Positions 3,069 through 24,700 of a DNA stretch of 64,000 bases are shown piece after piece. Source of the stretch: Saccostrea cucullata (taxonomy: Eukaryota); assembly GCF_032062105.1 (NCBI RefSeq), contig NW_026920225.1, positions 62,001 to 126,000 on the forward strand. Reading direction: 5' to 3'. The translations under genes were made by a program, and so were the position numbers. Under the pieces are notes generated by a model, which saw only the letters and a list, made by a program, of their open reading frames with translations, did not search any database and had not been told where the DNA came from. The number at the start of each line of letters is the position of its first letter. Position 1 is the stretch's first letter.

Positions 3069-6000
3069 GAATGGTTAAATGTAGAAAAGAAGATATCCAA
3101 GCAAATGAAAGGTAAATGTCATCAAGAGTTATTCCCCTTTAGTTCTTCAGCTTGCATTGGATTTTATAATATATTGATTCATATATGAAAAGAAGTGCAT
3201 GTCAACACCAAGAAAAAAATACATTTTACAGGCATGCATCTTTTATTCTTGTTTAATTAGAAAATAATAGTTGAGCATCTTCAAGGTATGAGGCTTGAAA
3301 GTGTTAAAAATAGTCATGGCTTTCATTGCACTAGTATTTATTCCAGAAAAGCTACATTTCATATATTTATACATGTTATACATATGTATATATATTTCAG
3401 GCTTGGCATGGGAGTTTAAGTTTGAGGTTAAGTTTTACCCCCCAGACCCTCAGACTCTGCATGAAGACTTAACTAGGTGGGTGTTTGAGGTTTCTATCAG
3501 TAAGGACATTGGAAATTAGTTGTTTATGTTGGGGCTTGCTGAAATCTTATACATTTCTTACAGTTTCAAGTTACTAATAACAGTTCTCTTTTTTTTTTTT
3601 TTTTTTTTTTTTTGTAGATACCAACTATGTCTGCAGATAAGAAATGATATTGTCAATGAAAAGTAAGTAAAAGAACACGGTTCACTTTTGCCTTATTTGG
3701 CCCTGTGAATTTCTGAAAAACTGAAACTGCATAGTTTTAGTTAATAATGCATTAAATATCACTTAGATCTTTGGTGACTGCGTATCTATCAAAATGACGT
3801 CATTTTCTGGCCAGTCAATGCATTATGACGTCACGAAATGCCTCGATTTCCTCATATTCTGAAAAAGTCTACAAAAACGGCCAATTTTTAAAGCTATTTT
3901 TAGCTCACCTCAACGAAGTTGGGGGAGCTTATGTAATACCCTCGGCGTCGGTGTCGGCTTCGGTGTCGGTGTCGGCGTCGGCGTCGGCGTCCCGGGTTAA
4001 GGTTTAGTTTTTTGGAGCAGTTTTCTTTTTAAGTACTTCTATGTCCTATATTGATTAGACATGCATGGAAGATGGTTCTAGTGTGTTTCATTGTACCAGT
4101 CAAAGTTTCAGATGCTGCAATTTTAGCACTATGACCAGGTTAATGTTTTTGGAGCAGGTTAACATTTTTGGTGCAGTTTTTGGTGTAGGTTTCATTTCCA
4201 AGTAACTATAAGCCCTATGTTAACCAAACTTGCATGGATGATACATCTAAGGATGCATAACCGGGCTTGCTTCGGATGCTGAATCTGACCTACTTTTTCC
4301 GGTTGAGTGAACAGGTTAAAGTTTTTTGGTGTAGGTTTCATTTCCAAGTATCTGTAAGTTCTATGTTGACCAAACTTGCATGGATGATACATCTAAGGAT
4401 GGATACAACCAGGCTTGCTTCGGATGCTGAATCTGACCTACATTTTCCATTTGAGTGAACAGGTTAAAGTTTTTGGTGCAGGTTTCATTTCTAAGTATCT
4501 GTAAGTCCTATGTTGACCAAACTTGCATGGATGATACATCTAAGGATGGATACTACCAGGCTTGCTTCGGATGCTGAATCTGACCTACATTTTCCGGTTG
4601 AGTGAACAGGTTAAAGTTTTTGGTGCAGGTTTCATTTCCAAGTAACTATAAGCCCTATGTTGACCAAACTTGCGTGGATGATACATCTAAGGATGGATAC
4701 TGCCGGGCTTGCTTCGGATGCTGAATCTGACCTACATTTTCCAGTTGAGTGAACAAATAAAAGTTTTTGGTGCAGGTTTCATTTCCAAGTAACTATGAGT
4801 TCTTTAATGACCAATCTTGCATGGATGATACATCTTAGGATGCATACTACCAGGCTTGCTTCGGATGCTGAATCTGACCTACATTTTGTGGATGAGTGAA
4901 AATGTTAGTTTTTGATGTATGTTTCATTTCCAATTAACTATGAGCCTTATAATGTGCAAACTTGCATGGACGATACATCTTAGGATGCACACTAATGGAC
5001 TTGCTTCGGATGCTGAATTCGACATATATATTTTTCAGATAATAGACCAGGTTAAAGTTATGGTTGCAGGTCTATTACCAAAAAACTTTAAGGCTTTTAT
5101 AACATTGTATAAACCAAACTTGCACAAATGTTGCATCAAGAGATGAAAACTCAAATTTGCTTTAGATGCTGAATTACATTTTCATGAAGAAGAACTACTT
5201 TAATTTTTTTATGTTGGTCTACTTCAAAGTATCAGATCAAAATTGCTTAGATATTTTCATTTTTTGGAATGTACATTTTTTGTTGGTTAATTGTGTGACT
5301 TTGCCTTATTTAAAGACAACATTTGTTGAGGTGAGCTCTGTAATCTCTGATTACCTATGTTTTGATATTTGATATAGAGCGCAACCTCTGATCTAAAATA
5401 TACAACTAGTAAATGATAGAGCTGTTTCTGAGGATTAATGGACATGTTTTATTTTTAAGATCAGAGAGTGCGCTCATATTATTTTTCTTTACTGAAAGTA
5501 CTCAATTAACCTGTTTGCCTAAAAATTCAAGAACATAGCAGTTTCATAAAGCCAGTTCTCCTAGACCTGGACTTTTAGAAGATTTTTTTTAATAGGATAT
5601 GAAAGCACCAAGTCTCTACTTTATTTTAATGCTTCAAAATAATAGAAAATCAAGTGTTGATCAATTTATTGGTATATCTACAGGGCCATTTTATGAATAA
5701 AGTGAACCGACTTCTTTTTAAAATATACTGCTATTTAGTAATTATTTGAAGTTTGTTTCATTTCTAACTTTGGAAGTAACAGGAAAGTGACTGCCCTCTC
5801 TGTTACAAAATCTATAGAGCATTCTCTGACTGAATTCCAAGGGTGAAATCTGGAGTAAAATATACACATGATATTCGTTTTCAGATTGCCTTGCTCAGCT
5901 GTAACCTATGCTCTTCTGGGATCCTACACAGTCCAATCGGAGCTGGGAGATTTCGACATCGATGAATTCGGTCCGGGAACAGAATATATCAGGAAGATGA

Positions 6001-7649
6001 GATTTGCTCCACATCAAGATAGAGAACTGCTGAAAAAAATAGCAGAGCTTCATAAAACTCACAGGTACTAGGATTTTTAGAGTTACACAAAACTCACAGG
6101 TAATAGGACTGTAAGAAATACAATGGGACAAAAAAAGGTGACATTAAGGTTCACTGACCCTCTGATAAGAGAGATAACTCTTACTAAGCTAGATGTAAAT
6201 AAATATTTAAAAAAGAATTCTGTCATCTTTCACCCAGAGAGGTATTCTGAACTTTGGGGCATATTTAAATCAATGTTAGTGTAAAAGCAAATTTTTTAAG
6301 AGTAAACAGAGAAGTCAGTAAGCTGGTTCATGTTCTCTATTTTATCATTCTTTACTTGCAGGGGACAAACCCCAGAGGAAGCAGAACTGCATTTCCTGGA
6401 AAATGCCAAGAAACTGGCAATGTATGGAGTTGATCTCAGTAATGCAAAGGTACTACAGGAGTTGTTTTGAAAAATGATGATTTGTTGAATGTTGATACAG
6501 TCAATTACAGTGTTGTGTAAAAGGAAATAGTCAGGAGAGTCCCCTTTAGTGGGATATACCCTATATTATTATTTTTGGATGTTGCTATTTTTGGCTATTA
6601 CTATTTTTGCAGGAAGATGAGGGGGTGGACCTTCAACTAGGAGTGTTCCCCCTTAGTGGGGTATACCCTATATTACTATATTTGGCTGTTACTATTTTTG
6701 TAGGATGGTGAGGGAGTAGACATTCAGTTAGGGGTGTGTTGGAGTGGTATTCTTGTCTTCAGAGAAAAACTACAGATCAACAAATTTGTGTGGCCAAAGA
6801 TTCTCAAAATGTCCTACAGAAGAAAAAAGTTCTACATCAAGCTAAGAACAGGGGAGGTAAGATTTCTGTCTTTCTCTGAGAAATTTTGTACATCCCAAAC
6901 CTTTGGCAAACTTTACGGTAATTCAGATAAATTCAGTAAATTCAGAATTTTTTTCGTCTGAGGATTATCATTCAACTTCTTCACTCAGTATCTTTAAATA
7001 AAGTTGGACTTATCTTTTGTAGTTTGAAGAGTTCCAGAGTTTGATAGGTTTCAAATTTTTATCAAGTAAACATTCCAAACGTATGTGGAAGATCTGTGTA
7101 GAAAACCATGCCTTCTTCAGGTAAGTCATTTAACCACATATCCCCCTTCCTCACCCTTATCCTCCCAAAAAGGTACAGCTGAACTTTGGGATGTTGAACA
7201 CAATATCTCAATTACCATGGATATGTTGAAGTGATTTTTGAAGTCCCAACTATATATTCTTTAAGTATTTTCCTTTCATATCAAAGCCTTGGATTTCTTG
7301 AAGTTTAATCTTGGTCTGGTCAAGTTTGAGATAATGAAATTTGACATGTAATTATATTGTGACTGTAATCAGTACACTAGTGTGTGACACATGTTTCACC
7401 AAAATGACAAAGTGGACTCTGAAGTCACAATGTCCTTGTTATAATTTTACAGAAACAGAGAGCCTGACTCTCCAGGAACACAGAGAGGATTCCTAAAACT
7501 GGGATCCAAGTTCCGTTACTCCGGGAGAACTCACTTCCAGACCAAGCAGGCTATGCTGGGGGTAGACCGCCCCTCTCCATTCTTTGATCGTGTCCACAGC
7601 AAACGGGCCACGTATCATGGCAGGACCAAAAACAAGGATCTAGCAGATG
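3069..7649 (+). CDS. Band 4.1/coracle-family FERM protein: FERM and FERM-adjacent (FA) exons; 5' exons lie upstream of the window
   Basis: AG/GT-bounded, phase-consistent exons 3069-3111, 3401-3476, 3618-3662, 5885-6064, 6362-6449, 6704-6856, 7023-7120, 7453-7649. They translate to [51 protein letters not shown]...[22 protein letters not shown]...[15 protein letters not shown]...[12 protein letters not shown]...WPKILKMSY...[12 protein letters not shown]...[11 protein letters not shown], the protein 4.1 FERM+FA signature. Confidence 0.96.
3673..5714. mobile_element. Non-autonomous TIR element flanked by AAA|TTT, related to the 18.4-24 kb transposon, with a nested HINE
   Basis: Left end aaa|GAACACGGTTCACTTTTGCCTTATTTGGCCCTGT. 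Right end reverse complement aaa|GAAGTCGGTTCACTTTATTCATAAAATGGCCCTGT. No direct target duplication. Confidence 0.75.
3902..5360 (+). mobile_element. Helentron-associated interspersed element (HINE) with a 147-bp tandem array
   Basis: T-run then AGCTCACCTCAAC, with inverted GTTGAGGTGAGCT at ~5325-5337. (GTCGGC/T)n microsatellite at 3943-3990. About 6 units of 145-147 bp (anchors 4201, 4346, 4493, 4640, 4787, ~4933). 3' hairpin GTAATC-TCT-GATTAC. Confidence 0.85.
7174..7350. mobile_element. Degenerate Tc1/mariner (pogo/Tigger-like) MITE
   Basis: TA-CAG...TG-TA ends; internal layout resembles the 43424-43598 MITE. Confidence 0.45.
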
Positions 7650-7924
7650 GTAATTCACCACGATCCGTATTGTCATCTTTGTCTTTTTTTTTTTGTTTCA
7701 TACATTTCCGTCTTTTTTTTTTGTTTTAAGATGACCTAATTTCATGGTTGAGATTTCATATGACAAGTCATGGGTTATATTGTAGACATACAAACCTTTA
7801 AAATGATAAATTCACATAACTTGGTTGTTTCTTTCTCTGTAATTAAATAATTTGATCAAGAACTTTATTGTCTCTTAAGTTGTGTTAAGAACTGTAATGT
7901 CTGTTCATATTTTCTCTTCTCTAG

Positions 7925-10900
7925 AAATGTACAAACCTCGACCGGAGCCTAGGCACATCCCGGAGTATAACCGAGAAGAGAAGATGATGAGGAAGGTTCC
8001 AGAGCCTGAGATCAATGACAAAGAAGACAGGGAAGATGTGTTTGAAGATGAGGAGGAGGAGGAAGAGGAGCCAGACAACAGGAAGAGTCGGATGGAGAAG
8101 ATGCACGCCGTCCCGACCCCGCTGGCGCAGGTCATGATGAAGAAGGAACAAGTGGAAAACAACAACCAGGAAAATAACCGCCGGAGAAGGTCATTCGAGG
8201 AGGAAATGTCCGACAGACCTCTGGATGATAGCATGGTACGTACAGACAGACTTAATAATCATAACCTAGTATATAGACATGCTTCTACTAATTCAGGGAA
8301 ATACTTGGACACTAATCAGAATCACACAAACGTTTCACTTAGTCCGGTTTTATCATTAACCAAGACAACTATGAAAAGACAGAGAGGGCGCCAGCGAACA
8401 GGAAGTGAGAGTTTTAAGAAAGTTTCTTTCGATGAGGAGAGCCTCAGAAGTGCTAGCTCTCAGTTCAGTAGGAGTGATAGTGAACTGTTTCCTCAGAAGT
8501 TATCTCTGCCCCCTAAAACGAGGTACCAGAAAAAGAGAACAGGCAGCCAATCCAGTGTTGAGAGTCCCCTAGCCATCAGGTCAACCATGACAGCATCTCC
8601 CAGTGTGGAAAGTCCATTAGAGTTCAGGTCAACCGTGACAGCGTCTCCCAGTGTGGATTGTCCAGTGGCTGTCAGGTCAACTGTGACAACATTTCACAGG
8701 AATCTTCACCCAAGGAAACTGGATTTCAAACGACATTCAGTGGATAAAGATTTGAATTCTAGTATTGATGAAGGATATTCTGACACTTTTGAAAGAAAAA
8801 TTTCAGAGAGAAGTTATGGAAAAAATACTAGCTATACAAATTCTTCTAAATCTGATTCTTTTGATGGTTCCAGACATATAAATGAAACAAAAGAAACAAA
8901 CAGAGCTCATAGAAATAAGTCTCATCTGATAGACACTACACTAGGTGGGAGTCTGTACAGATACAGCTCATCAGACTCTGAGGACTTCAGTAGTCCAGTG
9001 AAAGTGGAGGAGGAAAAAGTGACATCTAAGTCAAAAGATGTAAGGCAAGTAGGTAGGAGAGGAAGGCAAAAAGAACAGCCTGTCATGAACAAGGAGCCAG
9101 TGCCTGTTAGAAGGGAGAGTTCTGATTTTGTTATCAAAAACTTAGAATCAGAACCAGGAGGTGGGTTTAGAAGGAGAGAATCTGGTCCAGGAAATCTCAG
9201 CAAGAACTACAGGATAGCTCCCTCAGAGAAGTCCATAGAAAGAAGGGATTTCTCCAAACAGGATGGCTCAAATGTCACAGACACATACAACTACATAAAC
9301 AATGAAGCCATTTTGTTAGAAAAGTACATTATAAGAAAGCCAGAGTCTGAATCTTCCAGCAGTCCTAGAGAACAGAACCTGCTGGATGATAGCATCCTTG
9401 TCTCCAACCTGAGAGGCACCCCAGAGGAGGTCGCTCTACAAGGCAGTATTGAGTACTGTGGGTTTGCAGCAGGACCAAGGTCTACCTCCTCAGTGGATGA
9501 TATCCTGGACAAAGGAGAACAAAATGATGAACAACACACTTCTCACATCAATCATCAAATATCAAAGGAGGAAATCTCAGAATTAGAGCCTTCTAAAGCA
9601 GTTCTAGCTGAAGATGAAATAGAAAATGATGAGAGGCATGAAACTAACGGTAGAAACATGAATGATGCTTTAACAAACAGCACAGCATCTATCTTGTCTT
9701 TATCATCAGAAGAAGGAAGTGTTACTGTGAATGATTTTATCCAAAGTTATGACCATGAACCCTGTGTTCGAAGGGCAAGGTCAATGACTCTAGGTCAGGA
9801 GGAAAGAGAACCTGTTGACACCCCATCCTTTGAGAACAAGAAAGTGAGATTTTGCAGTGAGGATAACCTTGTGTATGAAGTGAGATATGGATTTTCTGAT
9901 GAGGAAAAGCCTCCTGAATCACCAGAGAAACTCAACTTAAACTTCATTGATGACAGTCTGTCTGATGATCAGCTCTCAGATTCCGAGTCTTCACCAAACA
10001 CTCCCTCCCTGTCTCGATATTTCAATGACTCCTCAGGGTCGTCTAGCTCCTGTACTCCTGATACCTCTCCAAGGTTGGAAACCACATCTGCAGTGGCAGG
10101 CACTTCTCATAGGACACTCCTACAGAAGAGTCTTCAGAAACCAGCAAACAGAAAGATCATGACAGATGGAGGAACCTTGGAAAATGATGAGAGAGCTGAG
10201 GAGATGGAGTTACTGAAGAAAAATGATCTTTTTGAGGATGCTAATGTAATGAAAGAGTTTTCGAATGAGAGTATTGAAATGGAAGAAGACTTTAATTCCA
10301 AGAATCAAACAATACCTCAATCATTATTAAACAATGAATTAATGACAAGTGAACAGCAGTTATTTTCTCTGAGTGAAAATGACATGGAAAATGTAAAGAT
10401 TAGTGAGATGGAAAGCAAGACAGATTTTGATGAGGAACAAAAGATACACCATGATGAACTTGATGCATTTACTCCACTTCAGTCTGGGAAGAAGAGTGAT
10501 ATAAAGGCAGCAGGGAATATTTGCAGAAATTTATTCAAGGACGATGGAAAACTGAAAGAAGTGTCCAATGCATCAGATGCTACTGCAGCAGATCTTTTAT
10601 CCAGCAAAGAGATACCTCAAAATAGTTTAGATGAAACAATTCAACAGAAGAATATTGAATTTAAAATGCAGTCTTTGTCCATGAACAGTGATGAAGACAT
10701 ACGAGGCAAGAATTTCAAAGTGAAACATCCCAAGGAAGACTTTGAAGTCAGAGAAGGAGTTGTCTCTGGACATGAAGAGCTTCTTCCTGTCATGTCATCA
10801 CTTTCTGCTTGTGGTCAGATACCAGCTGTAGATGAACACTTTAATTCAGTCACCTATCCTGCCCCATTACCCTCATCCACTTTTGTTGTTAGTTCTACTT

Positions 10901-13089
10901 CTGACAAGCATACCTATACTGTGTCAAAGGAGGCACCTTGTGGAACCACATCTATTGTTCCTAGTCAAAGTCAGTCAGGGATTTCAGATCAGTCTAACTA
11001 TTTACATGTGTGCAATACAACAAAAGACATCCCTTTTGAATCTGTTGCCTCTCCTGTCATTTCTACTAATGATCAGAGTGAGACGGCACATAAAAATTCA
11101 TCAGCACAGAATTCATCCATCAAAGAACCAGACAGTACAGCTAAAGAAACTTGCAGAAATACTGCCTTTATTGCTTTCCAAAGTACACCTGTTGATAAGC
11201 CTTTTGCTGTCACCAATACGTCTGTTAGTGATAATACACAATCTAGAGCAATTTCAACCCAGGGTAAAACAATTATTACAACTAGTACCTCAGAGCTTGG
11301 AGCTCCCATCAGCACTACTTCACACACTCCTCATAAATCCGAAGTCTCAGCAAGTTTCATCAAGCCTTCCTCAGTTCCTACCGCTTTTTCACAGAGTGCT
11401 TTTTCTGATTGGAACAGAACACCAACACCTATTAGACCTTTGGTTTTCATTCCTCCTAAAAAGACCATGATGTCTGCCTTACAAAAAAGTTCAGAAGATG
11501 TTTCTACTGTTCAACAACAGAATCCTCCTAAAAAATCAAAGAGTGGACCTGATTCTCAAATGGAGAGACTTGATGGGCAACAGAAATCCCCCAGGGACAG
11601 TTACAGCAGCACTGCAGAGTGGGTCTTATCCCACTCAAATAGGTTTGTCAACACCAGCTCTGATAAAGTCGACAAGGGACCCAATGTGAATCAAGTCACT
11701 GCCAAGAAGCCCAAAACTAAGGAGGATGAGGGGGTTGATTTCAGCATAACTAGACAGTTAAAAGACAGAGGAGATATCAGTACAGGTATCAAAATGGAGA
11801 GAGAAGTAAAAGTTAAGGAAAGTGAACAGATGAAGTCTTCTTCTCCCATTGGTGGAAATAACACAAAGAAGTCTATATGGAATCAGCTAGAAAGGGAAGG
11901 TGGGGGAAAAGAAAATGCAAATGATTGGGAAGTAAAACAGACACAGTTTGAAAGTTTGACAGATGCTGATAGCAAGAACATCAACTTAAAAGCTATTGAT
12001 AGAAAAGAGAATACAGTGTGTGTTAACAGAGAACATTTTCAAAAATCTGGGCTCCATGGAGACAAACAATTTAAATCAATCCAGTTAAATGTAGATGGAA
12101 GCACTATTTCACCATCAAGAAATTCCTCTGAATGTCAGGAGCTGAAGAAAGAAATAGAGGTTTCAGGCAGAATGAATGTTAAAGGCATTCCAAATAGCTC
12201 AAATGAACCATTTCTTGGAAATCCAAGGGAAAATTATGAAGATTACAGAGATTTTAAAAGGCCATTAAATACTTACACAAGTGAATCCATGTTTTCTCCT
12301 ATCTCAGCAAGACAGAAGAAGAAGGTGTACATTGATGGCTCCCTTCAGAGAAGAAGAGTGTTGGAAACACAGAAAGAGAAAGGTGAGGCAGGGAAAGACG
12401 CTGTGGATAATGTGATTGCTGGACAAGATGAAGACGGGGGATTGAAAGATGATGGTGTGAAAACAGAATCCAAAGACAGCAATATGGAAAGAGAGATTTT
12501 AGCACAGAGGGTTGAAGCAATAGAAAACATTGAAGAGTATGAACTTGCAGAAGAGGTAGTTAAAGATTCTCAAAGAGGAAGTGTTGCTGATTTAGAAGAG
12601 ATGAGTTGTCAAAGATCCCACAATAATTTAGCAGACAGTAATGGAGAACGGAATGGACATAGAAATAGAAAGAAGGAAGGACTTGGAGGGGGAAATTGTC
12701 CTTCTCAGTTACACAACATGGGATCACAGGAGAGACCAGGCAAAGATGGAGAAGATTTGGAAAGACGTGATGAACTGCCTCTTCTCTGTGACTCTGAAAA
12801 CTCTGAACTGGAGGAAGATTTTAAAATGGCTGAAGAGGAACCTGACAGCCTGCCAGAGAATTCAGCTGTTATGATGAGGGTGAAGCCTCAAGTGAAAAAA
12901 GATGAGGGTCCACCATTACCCCAGGCAGGCGGAGTAGACGTTCCTACAATGTTGCCTAGGAGACTAAGTGCTAAGAGGTTAAGTTCGATGATGGTTCGCC
13001 CCGAGAGTCCGGAAGCCGTGTACATCCTGTCTGAGGTCTTCTTAGCAATACTGATATTCCTCATCTCAATGCTTTTCTTATTCTTCTGA
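7925..13089 (+). CDS. FERM gene, giant terminal exon (isoform A): low-complexity S/E/D-rich region ending in a hydrophobic C-terminal helix
   Basis: Phase-1 acceptor at 7923-7924 is in frame with the FA exon. The ORF is open for 5165 nt to TGA at 13089 and ends VYILSEVFLAILIFLISMLFLFF*. An AATAAA at 14776 is followed by GT-rich sequence. An internal phase-0 donor ATG|gtacgt follows 8235. Confidence 0.85.
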
Positions 13090-15715
13090 GTCAGAATAGA
13101 AGCTTATTTAAAGTTTGTGAAATTGTTTTAGAGGCCTATCCTATAAACATTTATTAAAAGTTGCAATATCATATATTTTAATCATTGTTTGAACCCCATC
13201 TAGCACAGAATCTAAACTATAAAAGACAATGTCATATAAAACATATAATGGGAACTTTTTTTTTGAATAACATTTTCTGTAAGTTTTTTTTCTTTCTTTT
13301 TTTTTTATAGCTAAAATGGCTGTAATATTTTTCATATCAATTTTTTTAAAGGTAATAATATCTTCTTTTATTTTTGTCTTCATTTCAAATTCCTCGTTCT
13401 TTACAGAGGAATGAACATATTTAGTATATGTATGGTATACAAATATTGATTTTTTTTCTTTTGATTATTATATTCTGATGACTGTGATACAGTTTGGCTT
13501 GTACTTATGTTATATTTAATCCTGCTCTAGTCCCAGACTGTCCATATTATTAAGCCATGTTTTACATAGTTCTACATTTAAAAGATTTAGTCGTTATTCT
13601 TATGTTGAAGCTTTGATGCTACTTTATAGTTTAATCCATTCTTCTGGAAGTGCCATGCAATAGTTTAGAAATGAAATCCAAGTGAAGAGTTCATATACAT
13701 TTGTTACCGTATAAGTACATTTTCAAATAGAATATATAACTTTAAAAAATCTTTGTAAAATTGATGTTTGAATGTAAAATTGTTAAATATAGTGCTGTAT
13801 TTTTGTAATGGTTTGCTTTATTGAGGAATATGTTTTACAAACACATTTTTGTTTAATTTTGTTTATGTGTCTCAGGTTTTCATATAAATTTACATTATTA
13901 TATTTACACTGTTGTTCTTGCATATTGTTGTTTTCATATACAAGAGGTATTGTAAAAGAAAGGAATGAAGAAAATGCTGAAAAGCAATTTGGGAATGCTA
14001 TTTGTAAAAAAAAATCTTGTTTCCTTGGTTTCATCTATTAATTGTTTTCTTGTTAGTATAATTAAAACTGAAGGGAAAATGTGTACTTTTCAGTCATTTT
14101 TAATTTTACAGAAATTCAAGAGTTTGAGATGTACCTGAATAGCTCAGTTTTCTGAAGCAAGTGTGGTTGTTTTGTTGCCAATTTTTTTTTTTCATCATCT
14201 CTCCCTCAAAATTCATTGTACTGTTGATCAATTCAGGAAAATGCTGGCCATTCACTTCTGAATTATTCATGTACTCTATATATTTTTGCAGATTAATATT
14301 TTATGTTCATTATCTTTTTTCAACAATTGTAGATATGAAATTCCAACCTAACATTCTGTCTCGAATGAATTATTTTATTTAAAAAATTGAATTATCTTCC
14401 ATTTTGGGTATAGAACCATTTCTCGCATTGCTATGGATACATCCCTGTATTTCAAACAATTTTAATATGATAATGCACAAGACAGCAAGATTTGGATTGT
14501 TAAGCTAACATGTACATTATAGGACACATGACATTCACTTTGAGTTTTGAAACAGATAATCAAATTTTCAATCTTTTGCTTTCCTTTGGCTTTTGTACTT
14601 AGTAAGTGCTAAATTAATAATTTTCTTTGCTTTGTACACATGATTATTATTATGTACTTAAAGAAGTCACTTATACACTTGTTTTCTGTTTGTATAGGTA
14701 AAATCTTGTGTTCATTTGAATTATTTATTTTGCTAAAAATGTTGAATTGTTAACTTTGCTGAAATACTGGAGCGAAATAAAAGATGCTATAAAACGGATG
14801 TTGTTCTTCATATGAAAATGTTTACATGTGATTGAGTAACATTCTGTATATATGGTTTTTTCCACAAGGTACTTATTTTGCATTGTGTATTTGATCACAA
14901 ATTTTCAACAGGATTCCACACCGCATATTGAAAATGCAGTTAAGACGTGAAATGTCAAACCATTAACTACCTGCAGTTTCAGCAGAAATTGTTATTAAAC
15001 AGCATTTTAATGTCACAGTGGAAAAAAGTATGTTTACAGTATTTCATATGAATAGGATTACTCATTTCCAAACGAGTTGCACCATTAGCCTTTCTCCTGT
15101 CTTGTTGTGAAAAATGTCGCCACCGATGATCGAAATACTTATCTTGTAATGCATGCACAGCTAAATATGTGTAGTATATGTCTAAATATAGTAACTAACC
15201 TTTTGTCTATGTCGTACAATTGTACAGATTTTATAACAAGGTATTTATATAGCCCAGTGATGGATATTTGGGGCACCTGCTTGCGGGTTTGGAGGAGACA
15301 TATAACTGATCTTTCCTTCAGAGAAATACTAACAACTAATATTAATCAAGTAAAATAAAAGTATACCATTTGCTAACATATTCTAATAACTGCTTACTAT
15401 ATTTGTTTATCATACATGATATTGGATTAACAGGGAAAAATATTTCTTGCTTATTCCCAATTTTACCAACATTTTAAAATTCTTGCAAACTTGAAAAAAA
15501 GTAATAACTTTTTTTAATCAGAATGAATGGCATACTTCTTCATGACATGACAGGAGAATTAACAATTATTGGTATGAACTATGAATTTGAACATAAATGC
15601 AACTTTCTAATCAGAATAAACAATCTTTTTCTTCTTAAAAATGTTCAGTGGTCCCATTTTCCCCTGCAGAGTAATTGCTAATATTAATAATGAAAATCTG
15701 GGCTTTGCTTTGTAG

Positions 15716-18700
15716 GAAAGGTCAGTTGATGTCCCTCCAAACGAGCAAGAACCCCCGAGTGTACATAACCTCCCCTCCCCACCACTCGACCCCCCAGCAC
15801 TCCTTAGCAAAGAGGAGCGAAAGAAACGAGAGAAAGAGGAAAAGGAGCGTAAGAAGAGAGAGAAGGAGGAACAAAAACGGAAGAAGAAAGAGGAGGAGAA
15901 AGAAAAAAAGAGGCTGGCCAAGGAGAAGAAGAAGAAGCCGCCGGTGGAGGAGAAGTGGCAGGAGGCTGTGGCAGTGTCGGCTACCACAGAAACCGTGGTG
16001 GTGTCTGATCGGGCACCGCGGAGAATGAGCAGCTTTGAGGAGCAGAAAGAGGATAAGGTGAGTCCTAGCTTTCTTAATAAATATAGGTTTATATGCATGG
16101 ATATTGAATTTGCTGCATGATGGATTGTCAGTTTGAATTGTTCATTTATAATTTTTCCAAAATTTTGTTGAAAGACAAATGAGAGAAAAAAGTTCTTAAC
16201 CAAATTTGTTATAGTCAAGCTTATTTAATCATTGCATTTGTCTTGAAATATGTAGATAAATATCTTTGTTTGAAACTTTGGGGGTTTGATTGTGTTGGTT
16301 TCATTTCGTACTGCATTGCATTGAATATTTCATTTACTTATCAATTAATATTTGTATTAATCCAAGGTAAGTAAGAAAGAACAACTCTAACCCTTTAACA
16401 AGAGAAAAGAAATACCATATGTAATCAGGAATAATGCATGCTCTTTTCCTGTAATTAGCCTGAACATCGCGAGGCCGATGAACGAGAGGTAAAGAGTGCG
16501 GAGGCAGAAGGGGATTCTGAGAGTGATCGAGCCGATCAGGGCTCGGAGCAGGAGGGGTCAGAGAAAGAGGACGACCCCAAAGACGAGAAAGCGACCAAAG
16601 AGGTTACATATCACACGGTGTGACTCTCAACACACTAATCAAAGCTTCAGTCCTCTTACTAACTTATACTGTAGGCTATGTCTCTAGCGCCACTTTGTGT
16701 GTGAGTTTGGGGTTTTAGCTGTGGCCAGTTATCTAGAATTGCTGATGACCAGAGGAAATCCAGACCTTTGATATAACATGCTTTGCTTCTGCTAATATTT
16801 GAGAAGATTTTTTTGCAGTACCAGGGTACTCAAGTATTTGTTTTCACAGGATGTACAGAGCATAGCCAATTTAAACCTTGGACTTGTATTATGTGAACAA
16901 AAACAAATAATTATTTTGAGTCTAAATTTATATCTTTAAATTGATTAATACAAACAGTAGAGGTACTTGAATCAGAAATTACCTTTTAATTAGTTTTCTA
17001 ATTTTCTTCATGAAGGATGTTATAAGAATCTTAATTGTACTGTTAAAATGTGAAATTGGCAAGATTTGATTATATATATTACACCCCAACAAAACATACG
17101 TGTATCTGTAGAGTAAATAGATCAAATGGTACTGTAAATCACTTTTTATTCACGAGAACCTTATTTTCGCGTAATTACGCGAGACAGTGTGCTTATGAAA
17201 ATTTAATTCTCGCGTATAATAGCATTCCTTAAAATTATACAGAGGAATAATGACAATTCATGAAAATTTTGATTCACCAATCAAGAACCAATGACTCGCA
17301 AAAGTAAGGTATCGCAAAAATTTAGTGATTTTCAGTATTTTAAGTATAATTAACTATTCTTTTAATAAAGCATGGACAAAAGTATATAGACTAAAAATCC
17401 TATAAACTATAGCTAGTGAACTGTTGATAGGCATTAAAGCATCACCTTTTATGCAGCCATCTTCTTGGTAAACAACATGCTATAAAACATGGCCAGGCTT
17501 CTTAACTGGCCTGGATTTGATTTTGTCTTCAAAATTAGCTGAACTCTTAATTCATAGTGTTTACAATGCAACAAATAATAAGAACAATTTTAATGTAAAA
17601 TAAAAAGAGAAAACATGAATATATGTGGCAATATGGTATCCCTCCCAGCATTACTGACTTAACATTGTGTGGGGGGGGGGGTATTAGATGGCATACCTAA
17701 TGGTGATTCTTTAATAGCTCTATCCATATTTAGCCATGTTTGAATGTTGAATTTTGTTGTGGTGTGGTCATAGTTGGATCCATAATTTCTATAACCATTC
17801 TTTGAAGGGGATTTATGATAATTTATTAAAGAGTAAAACTGTTTTGGGAATTTATATTAATTAATAAATAACATTTAAAAACAGAAAGAGAAGGATAATA
17901 TAACTTATTATAATTGAGATGGTCATGCATGCCCCCGTTAACTTGGGATTAATGAGAATTAATGTTTCTGATTTCAGTCCTACGAAAATAAGGCTTTTAG
18001 CGTAAGACATGACTCACTTACTAGTAACCTTGGTACATACCTAGGCCTTGTACTGCTAGTCATCAGTTGTTTGTCATTGCTGAAAATGTCGTTGTGCTGG
18101 AAAAGCTCAGATCATAATTCAATTTGGTCATTATTTGTTCTGCATGAATATATGCATGAATTTCAAAACTTGAGAAAAAAATCTTTTCAAAAAGTTAAAA
18201 TAAGGAGAAACAATTTTTTTTAGATCTCTATTGTACAATTTAGATTTTGTTGGATGTGTGTGTACGTGCAGTTAGAATAATAAAAGCTTCAATGTCTTTT
18301 TTTATATAAATATATATATACGTACGTATGCTATGTATCCTCAGTTTTAACAAAGGACTTAAGCCAGAATGTACAAAAATCCGCCCTGTCACCAAAACGG
18401 ATGAAACTTTTTCAAACAATGCTCTTAGATTAGTATATTATATAACATTTTATTTTTTAACAATATATATATGAATTTGGTATTGTTCTCACTGATAATT
18501 CTACGACGTCATGACGTTGCCGTTACTTATTCTAACGTCATGACGTTGCCTTTACTTACTTTAATGTCATGACGTCAATCGTATATACTTTAACGTCATG
18601 ATAAGAAATTAATAAGTAGTAAACATGTAATATATATATATTCTAAGGAGGAAAAAATTCAATTATTTTTATATAAATCTCAATTTATCAATTTTTCTTC

Positions 18701-21700
18701 AAAGAAATTCTGAGGCATTGAAAAGAGTTTAGTGTTACTTGCTTTTCTTATAGTCTGTACTTCTCTAAAGAAAATATATACTCGTACTTCATAAGCAGTT
18801 ACGCTGTTTATTTACTATTTTATAAATGTAACAGTGTCAATTTAAAATAATAATAACAAAATTATCAGTTTTGTAAACATTTGTATTTCTTGCTCCAATA
18901 GAATTCATAATACACAAAATATTGAAGTAACCTTCACTTAAACATATTCTTAAAGTAAAACATAAAAATACATACATCAGAAATAATGTATAATGTATAT
19001 GCAAAGTCAAGTTATGCCTTTTTACTGATTATTGCTACAATATCACACCTGACTTAAAACTCACACATGAGATTATAAACAGTTAAATTAAATAAATAAG
19101 ACTCTACATGCGGAGCGGCCAAATTTCCGCTTCCGACTTAAAACTCACACATGAGATTATAAACAGGTAAATTAGAAAAATAAGACTCTACATGCGGAGC
19201 GGCCAAATTTCCGCCTCCGACTTAAAACTCACACATGAGATTATAAACAGGTAAATTAGAAAAATAAGACTCTACATGCGGAGCGGCCAAATTTCCGCCT
19301 CCGACTTAAAACTCACACATGAGATTATAAACAGGTAAATTGAAAAAATAAGACTCTACATGCGGAGCGGCCAAATTTCCGCTTCCGACTTAAAACTCAC
19401 ACATGAGATTATAAACAGGTAAATTAGAAAAATAAGACTCTACATGCGGAGCGGCCAAATTTCCGCCTCCGACTTAAAACTCACACATGAGATTATAAAC
19501 AGGTAAATTAGAAAAATAAGACTCTACATGCGGAGCGGCCAAATTTCCGCCTCCGACTTAAAACTCACACATGAGATTATAAACAGGTAAATTAGAAAAA
19601 TAAGACTCTACATGCGGAGCGGCCAAATTTCCGCCTCCGACTTAAAACTCACACATGAGATTATAAACAGGTAAATTGAAAAAAATAACAATTTTTTTTA
19701 AAAACATATATACAACATATATATAAAATAACAATATATAAAATACAATGAAGATTAACTAACTGTTCACTCCTCGGGAACACTTCCACAACTACTGTCA
19801 TCACTGTCAGACTCGTCCAAAGCAGGTGGGATGTCAGCTGCATCAAGGACATGCTCACTCCAGTCACGCACACCATATGTCCATTGTTCATGCCTTCCTT
19901 TTGCCAGGTACCAAATGATGGCTGCTATGTGAGAGCACATGCCTACAACTCTGGCACCCGCTCTGCAGGTACAATACCATGCTACTACAGAGTCATCAGA
20001 ATACTCAATCCAAACTAAATACTGTTTTGATGATGTGTGCCGACTCTGAATTTTTACCTTTAGGAGCCTATCATTTTCTTTATGGAAGGAAATATCACAA
20101 CCTCCCTCAATGTGTTCTTGAATATAGCTACGAGAGAGCTTCAATTGATAGGTGCCACAAGTCAAATTCCGCAACTTATCCTCATCCAACATGGGGAAAT
20201 TCTGAATTTCACATTCAAGAACTGTTTGCCATTGAGTAGATCTTCTGTTAAGTCCATTCTCCTGAACCATTTGTTTGAGATTATTCACCTATTAAGAAAG
20301 GCAGTAATGCAATGCATATATGAACTGAATCATGTGCATGTAATTATAACTTATATACTGATGTATTCAAGAGAGATGAGCAAGATAGAATTAAAAAATT
20401 AAATGTCTTCTTAAATGCAGATTTTTGCAGCTGCTCAATTACATTACGATATTATACAAAAAAATCAATTTGTACAACTTAAATACCTGTTTGGACAGAT
20501 AGAGCATTTTTGCTGCCTCTGCATCATCAGCCTCAGTGCTGTTACTTTTACTAAGGGGTGGAGAGAATCTGTTTGAGAGAGCGCAGACTATCCTCACATA
20601 GTCACCGATGAAGGGAATTTGATTAGTGGGTAGAGTCTTCTCTAAATATCTCCACCTTTTGATACGTGCGTTTGAAGATTCCACTACCCATCTGACCTGA
20701 AAAATATGTTTTCAAAACTTATTCATAGTAAATATATCTTCACAAGAAATTGTAAATAAATTTATTGAAAGAATTTACATGTTATTTACCTTTGTCACAA
20801 GTCTGCTCATATCTGCATCATCAGTAGTCATTTGGTTTTGTCCCTTGAGCAGAAATCGGGGCATTTCTGCCTGGATTCCAAGGTCTTCAAGAAGAGGCAA
20901 AGCATCCCTGAACCCGCGGTCAACAATAAAGATGTCGTCTTCACTTAGCCAGTTCCGAATATCTTAAGCATTTGTTTTAATGATATGTTGCAGGATTGAA
21001 GCATCATTGTTTTTATTATCAGCTAGATATGGTCCTAAGATTGAAACATAGTAACCAGTAGTAGTCACGATAACCATAGGTTTGATTAGTGGTCTCCCCT
21101 TGTGGATGCTGTAAGAACGTCTATGGAAGTGGAAATTATTGCTCTTGGCTGTGTATATGTAAGTACATGTACCATCCAGTACCAATATGGCCTGTTTCTT
21201 CTCGATGTTACCGAACAGTGTCTGTGCTAGCTGCCGTGTATGGTCATCGATGACTTCCTCTCTTCTTATGTGTTCAAACCCAAGATGGTGCGGCACAAAG
21301 CTGATCATCAATGCTGTTCTTACAGCACTAATAGCTCTCCTTAAGCTGGATTTGGAAGTTTGGAAAAGTGTTGACAGTATTTGATTGGACAAACCAGTTT
21401 TTAATTTGCACAGGAATATTGCAACGGATTTTCTTAGACTTCTAGATGGTGTTGGTTTCACTTCATCTCTCACAGAGTCACATATTGTATGGAAATCTTC
21501 CTTGTTGAGTCCCAGCAAAGATAAATAGTCTGTATCGGTCAGAGTCATGGTGCCATCAAAGTCCAAAAAAGACTTGTCATATTTATGACATAAAACACGC
21601 ATCTCTTGAAGTAAACTTAGGATGGTAGTTCTGTTAACAAAGGCATGGTCTGTTGTTGGTAATTGCTGAATTGCAGCAGTTGTGAAACGTCCATTTTCCA

Positions 21701-24700
21701 CATGACCAGGACAACATCTATTTCCGGATGGAATTAAGACATCGTGTTCGATAAAAACAGATGTGCGGCATTCTGGTGACACTACTATCAATTTTGGCCC
21801 TGGTTTCTTACAAACGATACAACAGGCATGAGTCTTCGCAGTGGATTTAAGGTGCAAGGATACAGATGGTGGAATGGAGAGATGTTTTCTGTTGTCATTT
21901 GTTTCGGACGCTGGACATTTCCTGTGAATTGCGGTAGAGCAGGGTGTTGCAGATGGTTTACGGCATGAAACATCTCTGTAATAATTGCTTCTACATTTGC
22001 TGCATATGACAGAATTATCCCTTCCTTCTACCATAAACCTTTTTCTTAAATATTTTCTTATGCCTTTGTCAAAATGCCTCCTTTCATTGGGTTTTGTTCT
22101 TTTAGAGCACAATACACAGTTGAAGTATTCAGTTTTGTGTCCTGGCATTATCTGAAATTAAATATAAGAATGTTTACATTTTATGCATTATTATCCAGGC
22201 ATACTAAGAATTCATATACCTTTCCAACTGAATAAAATGACATTTTTTATTTCATTTTACTGCTATAATTTATTTTAAACTACAGCCAAAAAGGCTTATT
22301 AAAATTGTGATCTTTTGAAAATATCTTCTCAATCTCATCCAGATTAGAATAACAATAAAATAATTTTCCCATGGTCTAAGCTATCTACATGTATGCTCAG
22401 ATTCATGGACTTAAATATTGATAAAACTTTGCCCGAGGAAGAACATGAATTTTTACATCATTGTACAAAAATTGTCTTCTACTTACTCTAGGAATACTTC
22501 AAAGATATTCGAGTTTAACCACCTAAAATATTGCTGCTTTATTTTTGTTTTAAAAATCTTTAAAACTCTTCACTGTGATATTTATTTTATGGACTTTTTT
22601 CTCCTTTCTATTTAAATATGCACACGCGTTAGGATCCACCCCCCAATTTCAGCAATTTATATTTAATAACCTGGGAAAGAACAACAAAAATAAAGTAGCA
22701 GAATTATAATATTAAAATTAATTTTGGCAGTTTATTACTTTAAAACATTTAAAACTACTAATTATGTTTAATGAATTTGCTTTAACATGCTTTAATTTGC
22801 ATTGTTGAATATATTGTTTTAAGAAAAAATCATTTTTAATGAAAAATCATTAAAAATATATTTAAAAGGAACATGAATTTTTTAAAGAGAGGTAACTCGT
22901 GACAACAAAAACAAAAAAAACACCTGATATAACAATATGTTGAATATCTGTGTTAATTTGTCTATTTTTCGGTAAATTATGACTATTAGAAATGTAAACT
23001 AATATTTTTACATTGATATATGGTCTTATAAATACGTACTTTTATTTTATTTCAAAAATAGAGGGGATTCAGATTGACATGTTCCAATGTTATCATTGCT
23101 GAAATTTGAACTAGATACTCATAGGTCTAACATTATATACAGATTTTAATAAAACTTAATTTAGACCAATGCCGATCTTTTTTGCATCTCAATCACATAT
23201 GGGTCAAGCGAGCGGTCCATGTATTATCAGCTCAGAATCATCATATTATATTGATGCATGTGTATGTTAAAGCTTACTTTACTTATATGTTTAGAAGAAT
23301 AAAGATACTCACCACAACAAAGTCATGTAAACGTCTCTATCTTCAGTCGATTTAACTATGCATTGTATATTGGTTCCATTGCATTCCGGATAGTCAGTTA
23401 TATTTTATCACATCGGGATCGGAAATATTCACCTTTTTACAGATGCTAGTTTTGCCGAGTGGATTTTATATCCTTTAAAATTCATTTACGGGCACAATAA
23501 ATTATTCAAAAATAAATCATTTAATGTGACTATTTAAGTCTAACCTTTATTTCTACTAAGCCCTACTGAGAGGGGGAAAAATCCGGAAATTATCGTTTAC
23601 ACAAGTCAGGCATCAAAGTACTGAGAAGTATGATTTAAGTAGGGCGCCACACGTGAACCACCAAAAACCAAATGAATTATGGATTAACATATATCAAGTT
23701 AACTGTGTTTAAATTTTCATCATGGTTTAAGGTTGGCGCCTTTAAAAAAATCGCTGTAAAAAGGTCTAAATTTCTTTGAAACTTGGTATTTTAGCATTAC
23801 CGCATCCGGTTTTGATGTTTATAATACGGCACGTGCTGTTTCCTTCCCAAAAATCAAGACGGAGACCAAAGGTTTAACATCTAGTAAAAAGTTGGCCTAC
23901 GTTTCGCTGCTTAATAATGAAGTTTGATTTTCAGGAATTGACAGGGCCAAATCATGCAGATTTTGGCTTAAGTTCTTTATATTGAAATATATATATTTAG
24001 ATCTAATTAATGAAAATTACATTTCTGGGAGGAATTTTTGGCAATGCTCATCATTTTACTTCTCTTTGGGGCTAGAAACAAGTCTTAATGATTTTCATTG
24101 GGCATGCATGTTTTCAGAATCAATTAAAAGCATTTTGCTTGTTTAAAAAAAAAAAAAAAACATGATCATACATTATGAATGCAGGAATATCTGGTCCATT
24201 ATTTTTTTTTTAAGTATTTGCCTGAAAGTTAGTATTTGTCTTTGAATTTTGTTCTAGCCCTGTATTTTCAGTGTGTATTCAATTCTCCCATGCATATATT
24301 TGTTTAGATTTATCAATTCCATGTAAACAATTAATAGCTAGTGTAGACTATCTATAATGTGATAATCAGTTTTGTGATTTTTCTTTACCTTGCAATTATT
24401 TATAGTTTATGCCATGGATTTAATTTGTACTATCTTTTTTTTCTTCATTTACCAATCCTTTTCCCAAAATATTTCCCCTTCTTATATACACTATACTCTT
24501 TTCCTGTTCCCTGTTTTGGTTGGATATTTTGGAATGATAAAATTATGAAGATTGATAAACATATAATTATAAATAAAACCCTCAAAATAGCCATGCAGAC
24601 TTTACAATATTTATAAAATCTAAATTTATCTTTTCCTGTTTGTAGGCCAAGGATGAGAATCTAAACCGCAGCACAGACCGAGTAGGAGAGGAGTTTGATT

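Follow-up and report, generated by a model that had tools for sequence, protein, structure and literature searches.

The window analysed here is a stretch of 64,000 nucleotides from the oyster Saccostrea cucullata (RefSeq assembly GCF_032062105.1, contig NW_026920225.1, positions 62,001 to 126,000 of the forward strand), and all coordinates below refer to it. It contains an oyster (Saccostrea-type) orthologue of protein 4.1/coracle. One exon of this gene has an internal splice donor at which the gene switches between two forms: splicing leads to a short form, while the frame on the other side of the donor is open and ends in a hydrophobic tail. Both the switch point and the tail are conserved, and the C-terminal domain of protein 4.1 (CTD, PF05902) is absent.

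The exons of the head and of the short form are given below. RNA evidence was taken from four RNA-seq runs (X1, X2, X17 and X18) of the 24 listed, all from a related species; X17 and X18 are oligo-dT libraries and X1 is random-primed.

3069-3111, 3401-3476, 3618-3662, 5885-6064, 6362-6449, 6704-6856 and 7023-7120, forward strand: FERM-coding exons, from AG/GT ends and tblastn with the protein P0172
7453-7649, forward strand: FERM-adjacent (FA) exon, from domain and tblastn evidence, with a joint to 7925 in all four runs
7925-8235, forward strand: shared 5' portion of the composite exon, carrying the bivalve motif MEKMHAVPTPLA, from tblastn and RNA coverage in all four runs
8236-8241, forward strand: internal phase-0 donor ATG/GTACGT, the switch point, with a joint to 15716 in X17, X18 and X1 and the same M/V junction in oysters and scallops
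15716-16057 and 16459-16602, forward strand: short-form exons, the first encoding a Lys/Glu-rich charged helix, from tblastn and joints in reads
17978-18001, forward strand: optional 24-nucleotide mini-exon of the short form (SYENKAFS), in the NCBI model P0002 and missing from P0172
24646-24705, forward strand: final short-form coding exon, ending EEFDL-stop, from tblastn and sequence reading

The open reading frame (ORF) is 98% identical to P0002, the NCBI model of S. cucullata, and P0172 is 98.5% identical to P0002 across the head. The N, M and C parts of FERM and the FA domain were found by a domain search of P0172 and matched to exons in the window by tblastn; the FERM exon joints from 6064 on are present in RNA reads. 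The first 70 residues have no match in the window; the initial FERM exons lie upstream of it. The named top matches are of the 4.1/coracle type, and the names FRMD3 and FRMD5 do not occur among the 240 match rows listed. The closest solved relative is 4.1B (E 7e-124), and the head is about 60% identical to the FERM and FA regions of protein 4.1. In a midpoint-rooted tree of 47 hand-chosen protein rows, with no non-4.1 outgroup and no FRMD3/5 sequence, the gene nests among 4.1/coracle rows: all 15 bivalve rows fall in a single clade (100/99), whose sister is a set of four gastropod 4.1 rows (98/92).

The original prediction had noted that neither a spectrin-actin-binding domain nor a CTD was visible. 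The second half of this statement is informative: the CTD was found in none of 17 bivalve proteins and in all three controls, and no tblastn match to the window was obtained with CTD-bearing proteins as queries. The first half is true and says little, as the spectrin-actin-binding domain (PF04382) was found in none of 20 proteins, including three invertebrate controls. PMC11334333 describes 4.1 proteins as being without a transmembrane region. As the gene has no CTD, and its long form has a predicted transmembrane segment, we file it as a derived variant, that is, a 4.1-derived bivalve orthologue without a CTD and not a canonical member of the family.

The composite exon has its acceptor AG at 7923-24, and the exon starting at 15716 is in phase 0, compatible with the donor after 8235, as had been proposed. 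If the donor is passed over, the frame continues along the features below.

8236-13089, forward strand: read-through extension of 1617 codons, rich in Ser, Glu, Lys and Asp, predicted to be disordered, net charge -47, with about 14 short conserved islands, from the ORF, composition and an oyster alignment
8416-8430, forward strand: putative RVxF-type (PP1-docking-like) motif KKVSF, 60 residues past the donor, invariant in six of six oyster rows
9838-9852, forward strand: putative second RVxF-type motif KKVRF, inside a conserved island of 25 residues, invariant in six of six oyster rows
13018-13086, forward strand: C-terminal hydrophobic helix with zero residues after it, a predicted tail anchor, from hydropathy, predicted structure and conservation
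13036-13041, forward strand: weak site GAG/GTCTTC, used as a donor by P0002 and assessed by model comparison, orthologues and RNA joints
13090-14781, forward strand: candidate 3' untranslated region of the long form, with ATTAAA at 13153, ATTAAA at 14061 and AATAAA at 14776, from a hexamer scan and RNA coverage

The ORF is open from 7879 to 13089, and the chance of such a run is about 1e-49. Using the N-terminus of P0002, the long form has 2083 residues and the short form 655; no signal peptide was seen at the N-terminus by inspection of P0002. In agreement with the original prediction, the extension appears disordered (81% of its windows score unfolded) and no Pfam family matches it. The tail stands out clearly, with the top 19-residue hydropathy window at residues 1716-1734 (2.74, against a maximum of 0.84 elsewhere), and a comparable tail was obtained in none of 2000 shufflings. 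It has a net charge of 0 and a grand average of hydropathy (GRAVY) of 2.74. The last 21-23 residues are the sole hydrophobic segment, with no other elsewhere in the chain; structure prediction makes this segment a helix, with a predicted local distance difference test (pLDDT) of 94-96. Given that the long form exists, the helix very probably inserts into a membrane as a tail anchor.

A drop in CpG content past the donor had also been noted. The drop is real (observed/expected from 0.73 to 0.18), yet the upstream FERM exons pool at 0.30 and we rejected it as evidence for that reason; the fall is undiagnostic and the short CpG-rich exons are the outliers. Within the extension, P0002 removes a 90-nucleotide GT-AG stretch (8651-8740) where a 48-bp tandem repeat (8576-8699) ends. 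No such joint occurs in the reads, and the removal is likely a prediction artefact.

The short form is made. The joint from 8235 to 15716 is present in 26 reads of X17, in 34 reads of X18 and in one contig of X1; none is listed for X2, though both exons are covered there. The extension is covered at a depth of 10-22 in X1 and 4-13 in X2, compared with about 100-390 in flanking exon bins. Its coverage starts at the donor without a gap, and one contig in each of these runs (11741-13255 in X1, 11485-13164 in X2) spans the codons of the helix and the stop. X2 has no coverage at 13507-13873, where the depth in X1 is 9, and none in the next intron, which disfavours DNA or plain pre-mRNA as the source. 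One form thus uses the donor as a splice site and the other reads past it, which is what defines a composite terminal exon, and the proposed isoform switch finds support in both the splice and the covered extension. It is likely that the long form is made, at a low level and not everywhere.

Where the long form ends is less sharply marked. Coverage stops near 13164 in X2 and near 14250 in X1, although contigs cannot mark RNA ends, and no pile-up of read ends at an intronic cleavage site was seen in the runs. The AATAAA at 14776, proposed as the polyadenylation signal, is present; as the site used it was not accepted, since hexamers in 13090-15715 occur at chance level (AATAAA 3 against 3.4 expected, ATTAAA 3 against 4.4) and two ATTAAA, at 13153 and 14061, lie nearer. 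The Logan proteins P0003 and P0005-P0007 were left out of the count of expression evidence; P0003 starts in intron sequence.

The hydrophobic tail is retained in all eight other oyster proteins. In six oyster rows, 18 of 23 residues are invariant at the C-terminal end, compared with 287 of 1567 in the spacer. Six other oyster proteins span the donor, and despite indels each of them keeps the frame open there, as do both scallops and a clam contig, L001. Among 119 other long 4.1-like matches exactly three have a hydrophobic tail, from Argopecten (3010 residues), Pecten (3026) and Solemya (3331), and all three models consist of FERM, FA, a giant spacer and a terminal helix, without a CTD. Scallops and oysters share the M/V switch point; further, the short form P0164 is 99.8% identical to residues 1-509 of the Argopecten long model and diverges from it exactly at the donor.

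A scan of DNA with the shared-exon motif alone, and thus blind to the tail, returned one locus, on L001, nearest to Mactra, Mya and Mercenaria, with 77-81% across the FA exon. Its similarity to short forms ends at a phase-0 GT, and its frame of 2848 codons has a hydrophobic tail with a GRAVY of 2.6, against a maximum of 1.22 elsewhere. Across the tails analysed, the GRAVY is 1.9-2.8 and the charge 0 or -1. A register of acidic residue, Leu and Ser fits six of eight tails, as a pattern written after seeing them.

Wider searches with the oyster sequences returned little. A profile of the oyster tail against 1.84 billion representatives found three oyster proteins only and not the tails of the scallops or of Solemya, which makes it silent on absence elsewhere. 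A search of the ESM Atlas with the tail gave no usable match, and a scan of metagenome contigs with the oyster extension gave 205 pattern matches, none of them confirmed. The spacers of the two scallops (P0012 and P0013, residues ~960-1400) contain long 11-residue tandem repeats of the SKETSIDDIVP type, not found in oysters, which on this pattern are one route of spacer growth in scallops. At the other end of the switch, the short forms of 25 bivalve proteins (among P0163-P0189) terminate in EVSF (12), EFDL (11), EVSI (1) or EFEL (1), an acidic-hydrophobic terminus that we take to be akin to a PDZ-type ligand. The switch would then exchange a PDZ-like terminus for a membrane anchor.

The path of P0002 itself constitutes an alternative: the extension would be one giant internal exon with its exit at 13036, which would leave the hydrophobic codons in an intron and the protein soluble. 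The site matches the consensus at four of nine positions, compared with six of nine at 8235. At that codon Ile stands in place of Val in all eight other oyster proteins, which represent about three lineages, and this abolishes the GT; models of three species use three different exits. None of the 12 joints listed in the four runs starts from 13035, and the contigs of X1 and X2 pass through the stop; since the runs are from a related species, the site may still have a minor use in this one. With the GT missing from the orthologues and no joint of this kind in the runs, 13036 is likely not a real main donor, and we consider an internal exon of this kind very improbable. The original prediction had named splicing at 13036 and a tail not kept in orthologues as the two outcomes that would speak against it. 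Neither was found in the four runs and the orthologues, the tail being kept in the oysters, the scallops, Solemya and the clam.

Several observations do weigh against a giant tail-anchored form. Of the 13 bins across the extension, 12 are empty in X17 and 10 in X18, and the long form is therefore rare or restricted; in X1, random priming means that pre-mRNA may contribute to the coverage. No read or contig in the four runs links FERM to the tail, and the one X2 contig with four spliced exons ends only 15 bases beyond the donor. The annotated exits differ (before the helix in P0002, after it in P0130, upstream of it in P0160), the Ostrea and Magallana models leaving the extension at two other places, one of them past the helix. 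RefSeq treats the extension as separate genes in C. virginica (P0009) and C. gigas (P0010), and the RefSeq listings for Mercenaria, Mya, Dreissena and Mizuhopecten contain short isoforms only. By BLAST, the oyster extension has no match below E 1.3 in those of the scallops and Solemya, and the clam tail is out of the register shared by the other tails. Finally, a second, CTD-bearing bivalve copy does not appear among the named match rows, which is not a search of any whole genome.

Some of these points would suit a separate gene nested within the intron, one that starts on its own, lacks FERM and has a disordered, tail-anchored product. The separate genes in the two Crassostrea annotations are of this kind, the start of P0010 lies downstream of the first available Met, and a joined FERM-tail molecule is exactly what the runs do not contain. 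Such a gene would not need the frame to be open across the donor, as it is in six of six spanning oyster proteins, both scallops and L001, nor coverage that begins at the donor, and the scallop and Solemya models join the extension to FERM. We regard a nested gene as quite improbable, and it is very probable that FERM and tail are carried on one molecule that is ended by intronic polyadenylation.

The exon arrangement has precedents. The skipping of a donor that extends an exon into an intron is described for IgM (PMC5928244), and the acquisition of a transmembrane segment from intron sequence for WDR33 V2 (PMC11019558). The bivalve gene differs from both in gaining 1600-2900 residues and a longer product, whereas the intronic form of IgM loses its anchor.

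According to PMC11334333, the partners of FERM are proteins and lipids of the plasma membrane, and in mammalian cells 4.1 links the endoplasmic reticulum (ER) to the plasma membrane, its CTD binding the ER-anchored TMEM24/C2CD2. In the oyster, splicing at the internal donor would give a soluble adaptor of about 650 residues and read-through a giant form, of about 2080 residues here, with the terminal helix. This helix is predicted to insert post-translationally into the ER. With its FERM head holding on to lipids and adhesion proteins of the plasma membrane, the giant form would tie cortical ER to cell junctions. The long acidic spacer may keep the gap wide and loose and also bear docking motifs, including two that are PP1-like. 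Vertebrate 4.1 reaches the ER by way of its CTD and TMEM24, an ER protein; in the bivalve form the tail would take on this task without an intermediary.

The steps of this scheme are not equally firm. PMC5450235 gives an ER pattern of hydrophobicity and tail charge; the bivalve tails fit it, with a GRAVY of 1.9-2.8 and a charge of 0 or -1, which suggests ER residence, and the ER is probably the resting membrane. The role as a tether between the ER and the plasma membrane, put forward in the original prediction, is still conjectural. It is now better founded through the ER-type properties of the tail and the vertebrate 4.1 bridge through the CTD, and we would place it slightly short of an even chance. 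By the scaling law for coils, 1700-2900 residues would span an estimated 30-40 nm, with a contour of 600-1000 nm. The gap between ER and plasma membrane is 10-30 nm, and the spacer is far longer than this requires, which tells against a simple tether. The arm exceeds the need of the contact and is therefore likely also a spacer and carrier of motifs.

Two other readings keep the tail anchor. In the first the long form reaches the plasma membrane, with head and tail on one membrane, and serves as a cortical or junction scaffold like FRMD3. The helix is very hydrophobic, at 21-25 residues, and coracle is said to bind adhesion proteins of septate junctions. Hydrophobic tails can exit the ER to later membranes, and FRMD3, described as single-pass, is found at cell-cell contacts (PMC11687992). 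Anchoring on the same membrane needs no spacer of 1600-2900 residues, however, and zero charge without a luminal tail fits ER residence (PMC5450235); we judge this location unlikely.

In the second reading the long form is a signalling scaffold or spacer anchored in the ER or nuclear envelope, for example a PP1-targeting subunit, and bridging is incidental. KKVSF and KKVRF are putative RVxF-type, PP1-docking-like motifs by the consensus. Both are invariant in the oyster rows, KKVSF has a counterpart 55 residues past the donor in both scallops, and the roughly 14 islands are conserved in a spacer that otherwise drifts. A parallel is PPP1R3F, an ER tail-anchored PP1 subunit (PMC5450235). Two RVxF matches arise by chance in 312 of 2000 shuffles (16%), no strict match follows the head in Solemya, and the FERM head is still highly conserved, implying binding to the cortex. 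A scaffold of this type has a low probability in our view, marginally below that of the plasma membrane anchor.

In its mode of action the proposed ER-plasma membrane tether would resemble junctophilin and the 4.1-TMEM24 bridge. The head, with FERM and FA, is that of protein 4.1/coracle. The peripheral character of that family holds for the bivalve short forms (25 of 25 ending in the EEFDL/EEVSF type) and not for the long form, with its terminal helix and without a CTD. Like the 4.1-TMEM24/C2CD2 junction as outlined in PMC11334333, it would have FERM on adhesion proteins and the ER at the opposite end. The ER link there is a separate lipid-transfer protein, while the bivalve form has a helix on the same chain and no lipid-transfer module was seen. 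Junctophilin is similar in that one chain carries a plasma-membrane-binding head, a flexible part and a transmembrane segment in the ER (PMC11230412). Its head is made of MORN repeats rather than FERM, and no MORN match was obtained in the domain searches of the gene. Junctophilin is far shorter than the bivalve long form, and we know of no soluble splice form of it of a comparable kind.

The transmembrane segment of the bivalve long form is predicted near the C-terminus. In FRMD3 the segment is C-terminal, and likewise in FRMD5; these belong to a separate FERM subfamily of about 600 residues without a giant spacer. The likeness is thus one of layout only, FERM plus a transmembrane segment, FRMD3 being single-pass according to PMC11687992; PMC9834407, also on FRMD3, holds no transmembrane passage.

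A few other features of the window deserve mention. The intron preceding the FERM-C exon at 6704 contains a partial duplicate of the start of that exon, with its own AG (6613-6660), and no joint to it is listed. A 147-bp tandem array of 5.8 copies occupies 4175-5018 in a FERM intron. In a short-form intron lies a transposon-like insert (19051-22157, reverse strand) with ORFs matching a SWIM finger (E 1.5e-4) and HTH_Tnp_4 (E 0.001, below the cut-off), adjoined by an 84-bp tandem array of 7.6 copies. Further, the ORFs 30268-32574 (reverse) and 45516-46853 (forward) are related (32% over 72 residues, E 6e-13), and a long stretch of low complexity follows each of them. One of them has a weak TIR_2 match (E 0.038), and from these similarities the two are possibly a paralogue pair of TIR adaptors.

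No published account of a tail-anchored bivalve 4.1 was found in the literature on protein 4.1/coracle in bivalves, molluscs or oysters or on FERM tail-anchored proteins, in a search that most subscription papers and supplements lie outside. The architecture is already present, unnamed, in three public models. Five oyster models handle the exon in four ways, none of them linking FERM to the tail, and the finding corrects the databases on this point.

Tentatively, and at lower confidence than the tether role itself, we propose that at the base of the bivalves 4.1 lost its CTD and gained an intronic giant arm with its own ER anchor, so that one choice between splicing and polyadenylation would yield a PP1-recruiting, one-molecule tether and the first transmembrane protein 4.1. 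A 4.1 with its own anchor and without a CTD, from protobranchs to oysters, scallops and clams, would be a natural experiment on the linkage between the ER and adhesion. It allows one to ask whether a tail anchor can replace the CTD-TMEM24 bridge, and a spacer of 1600-2900 residues with little sequence kept lets tether length be weighed against docking motifs.

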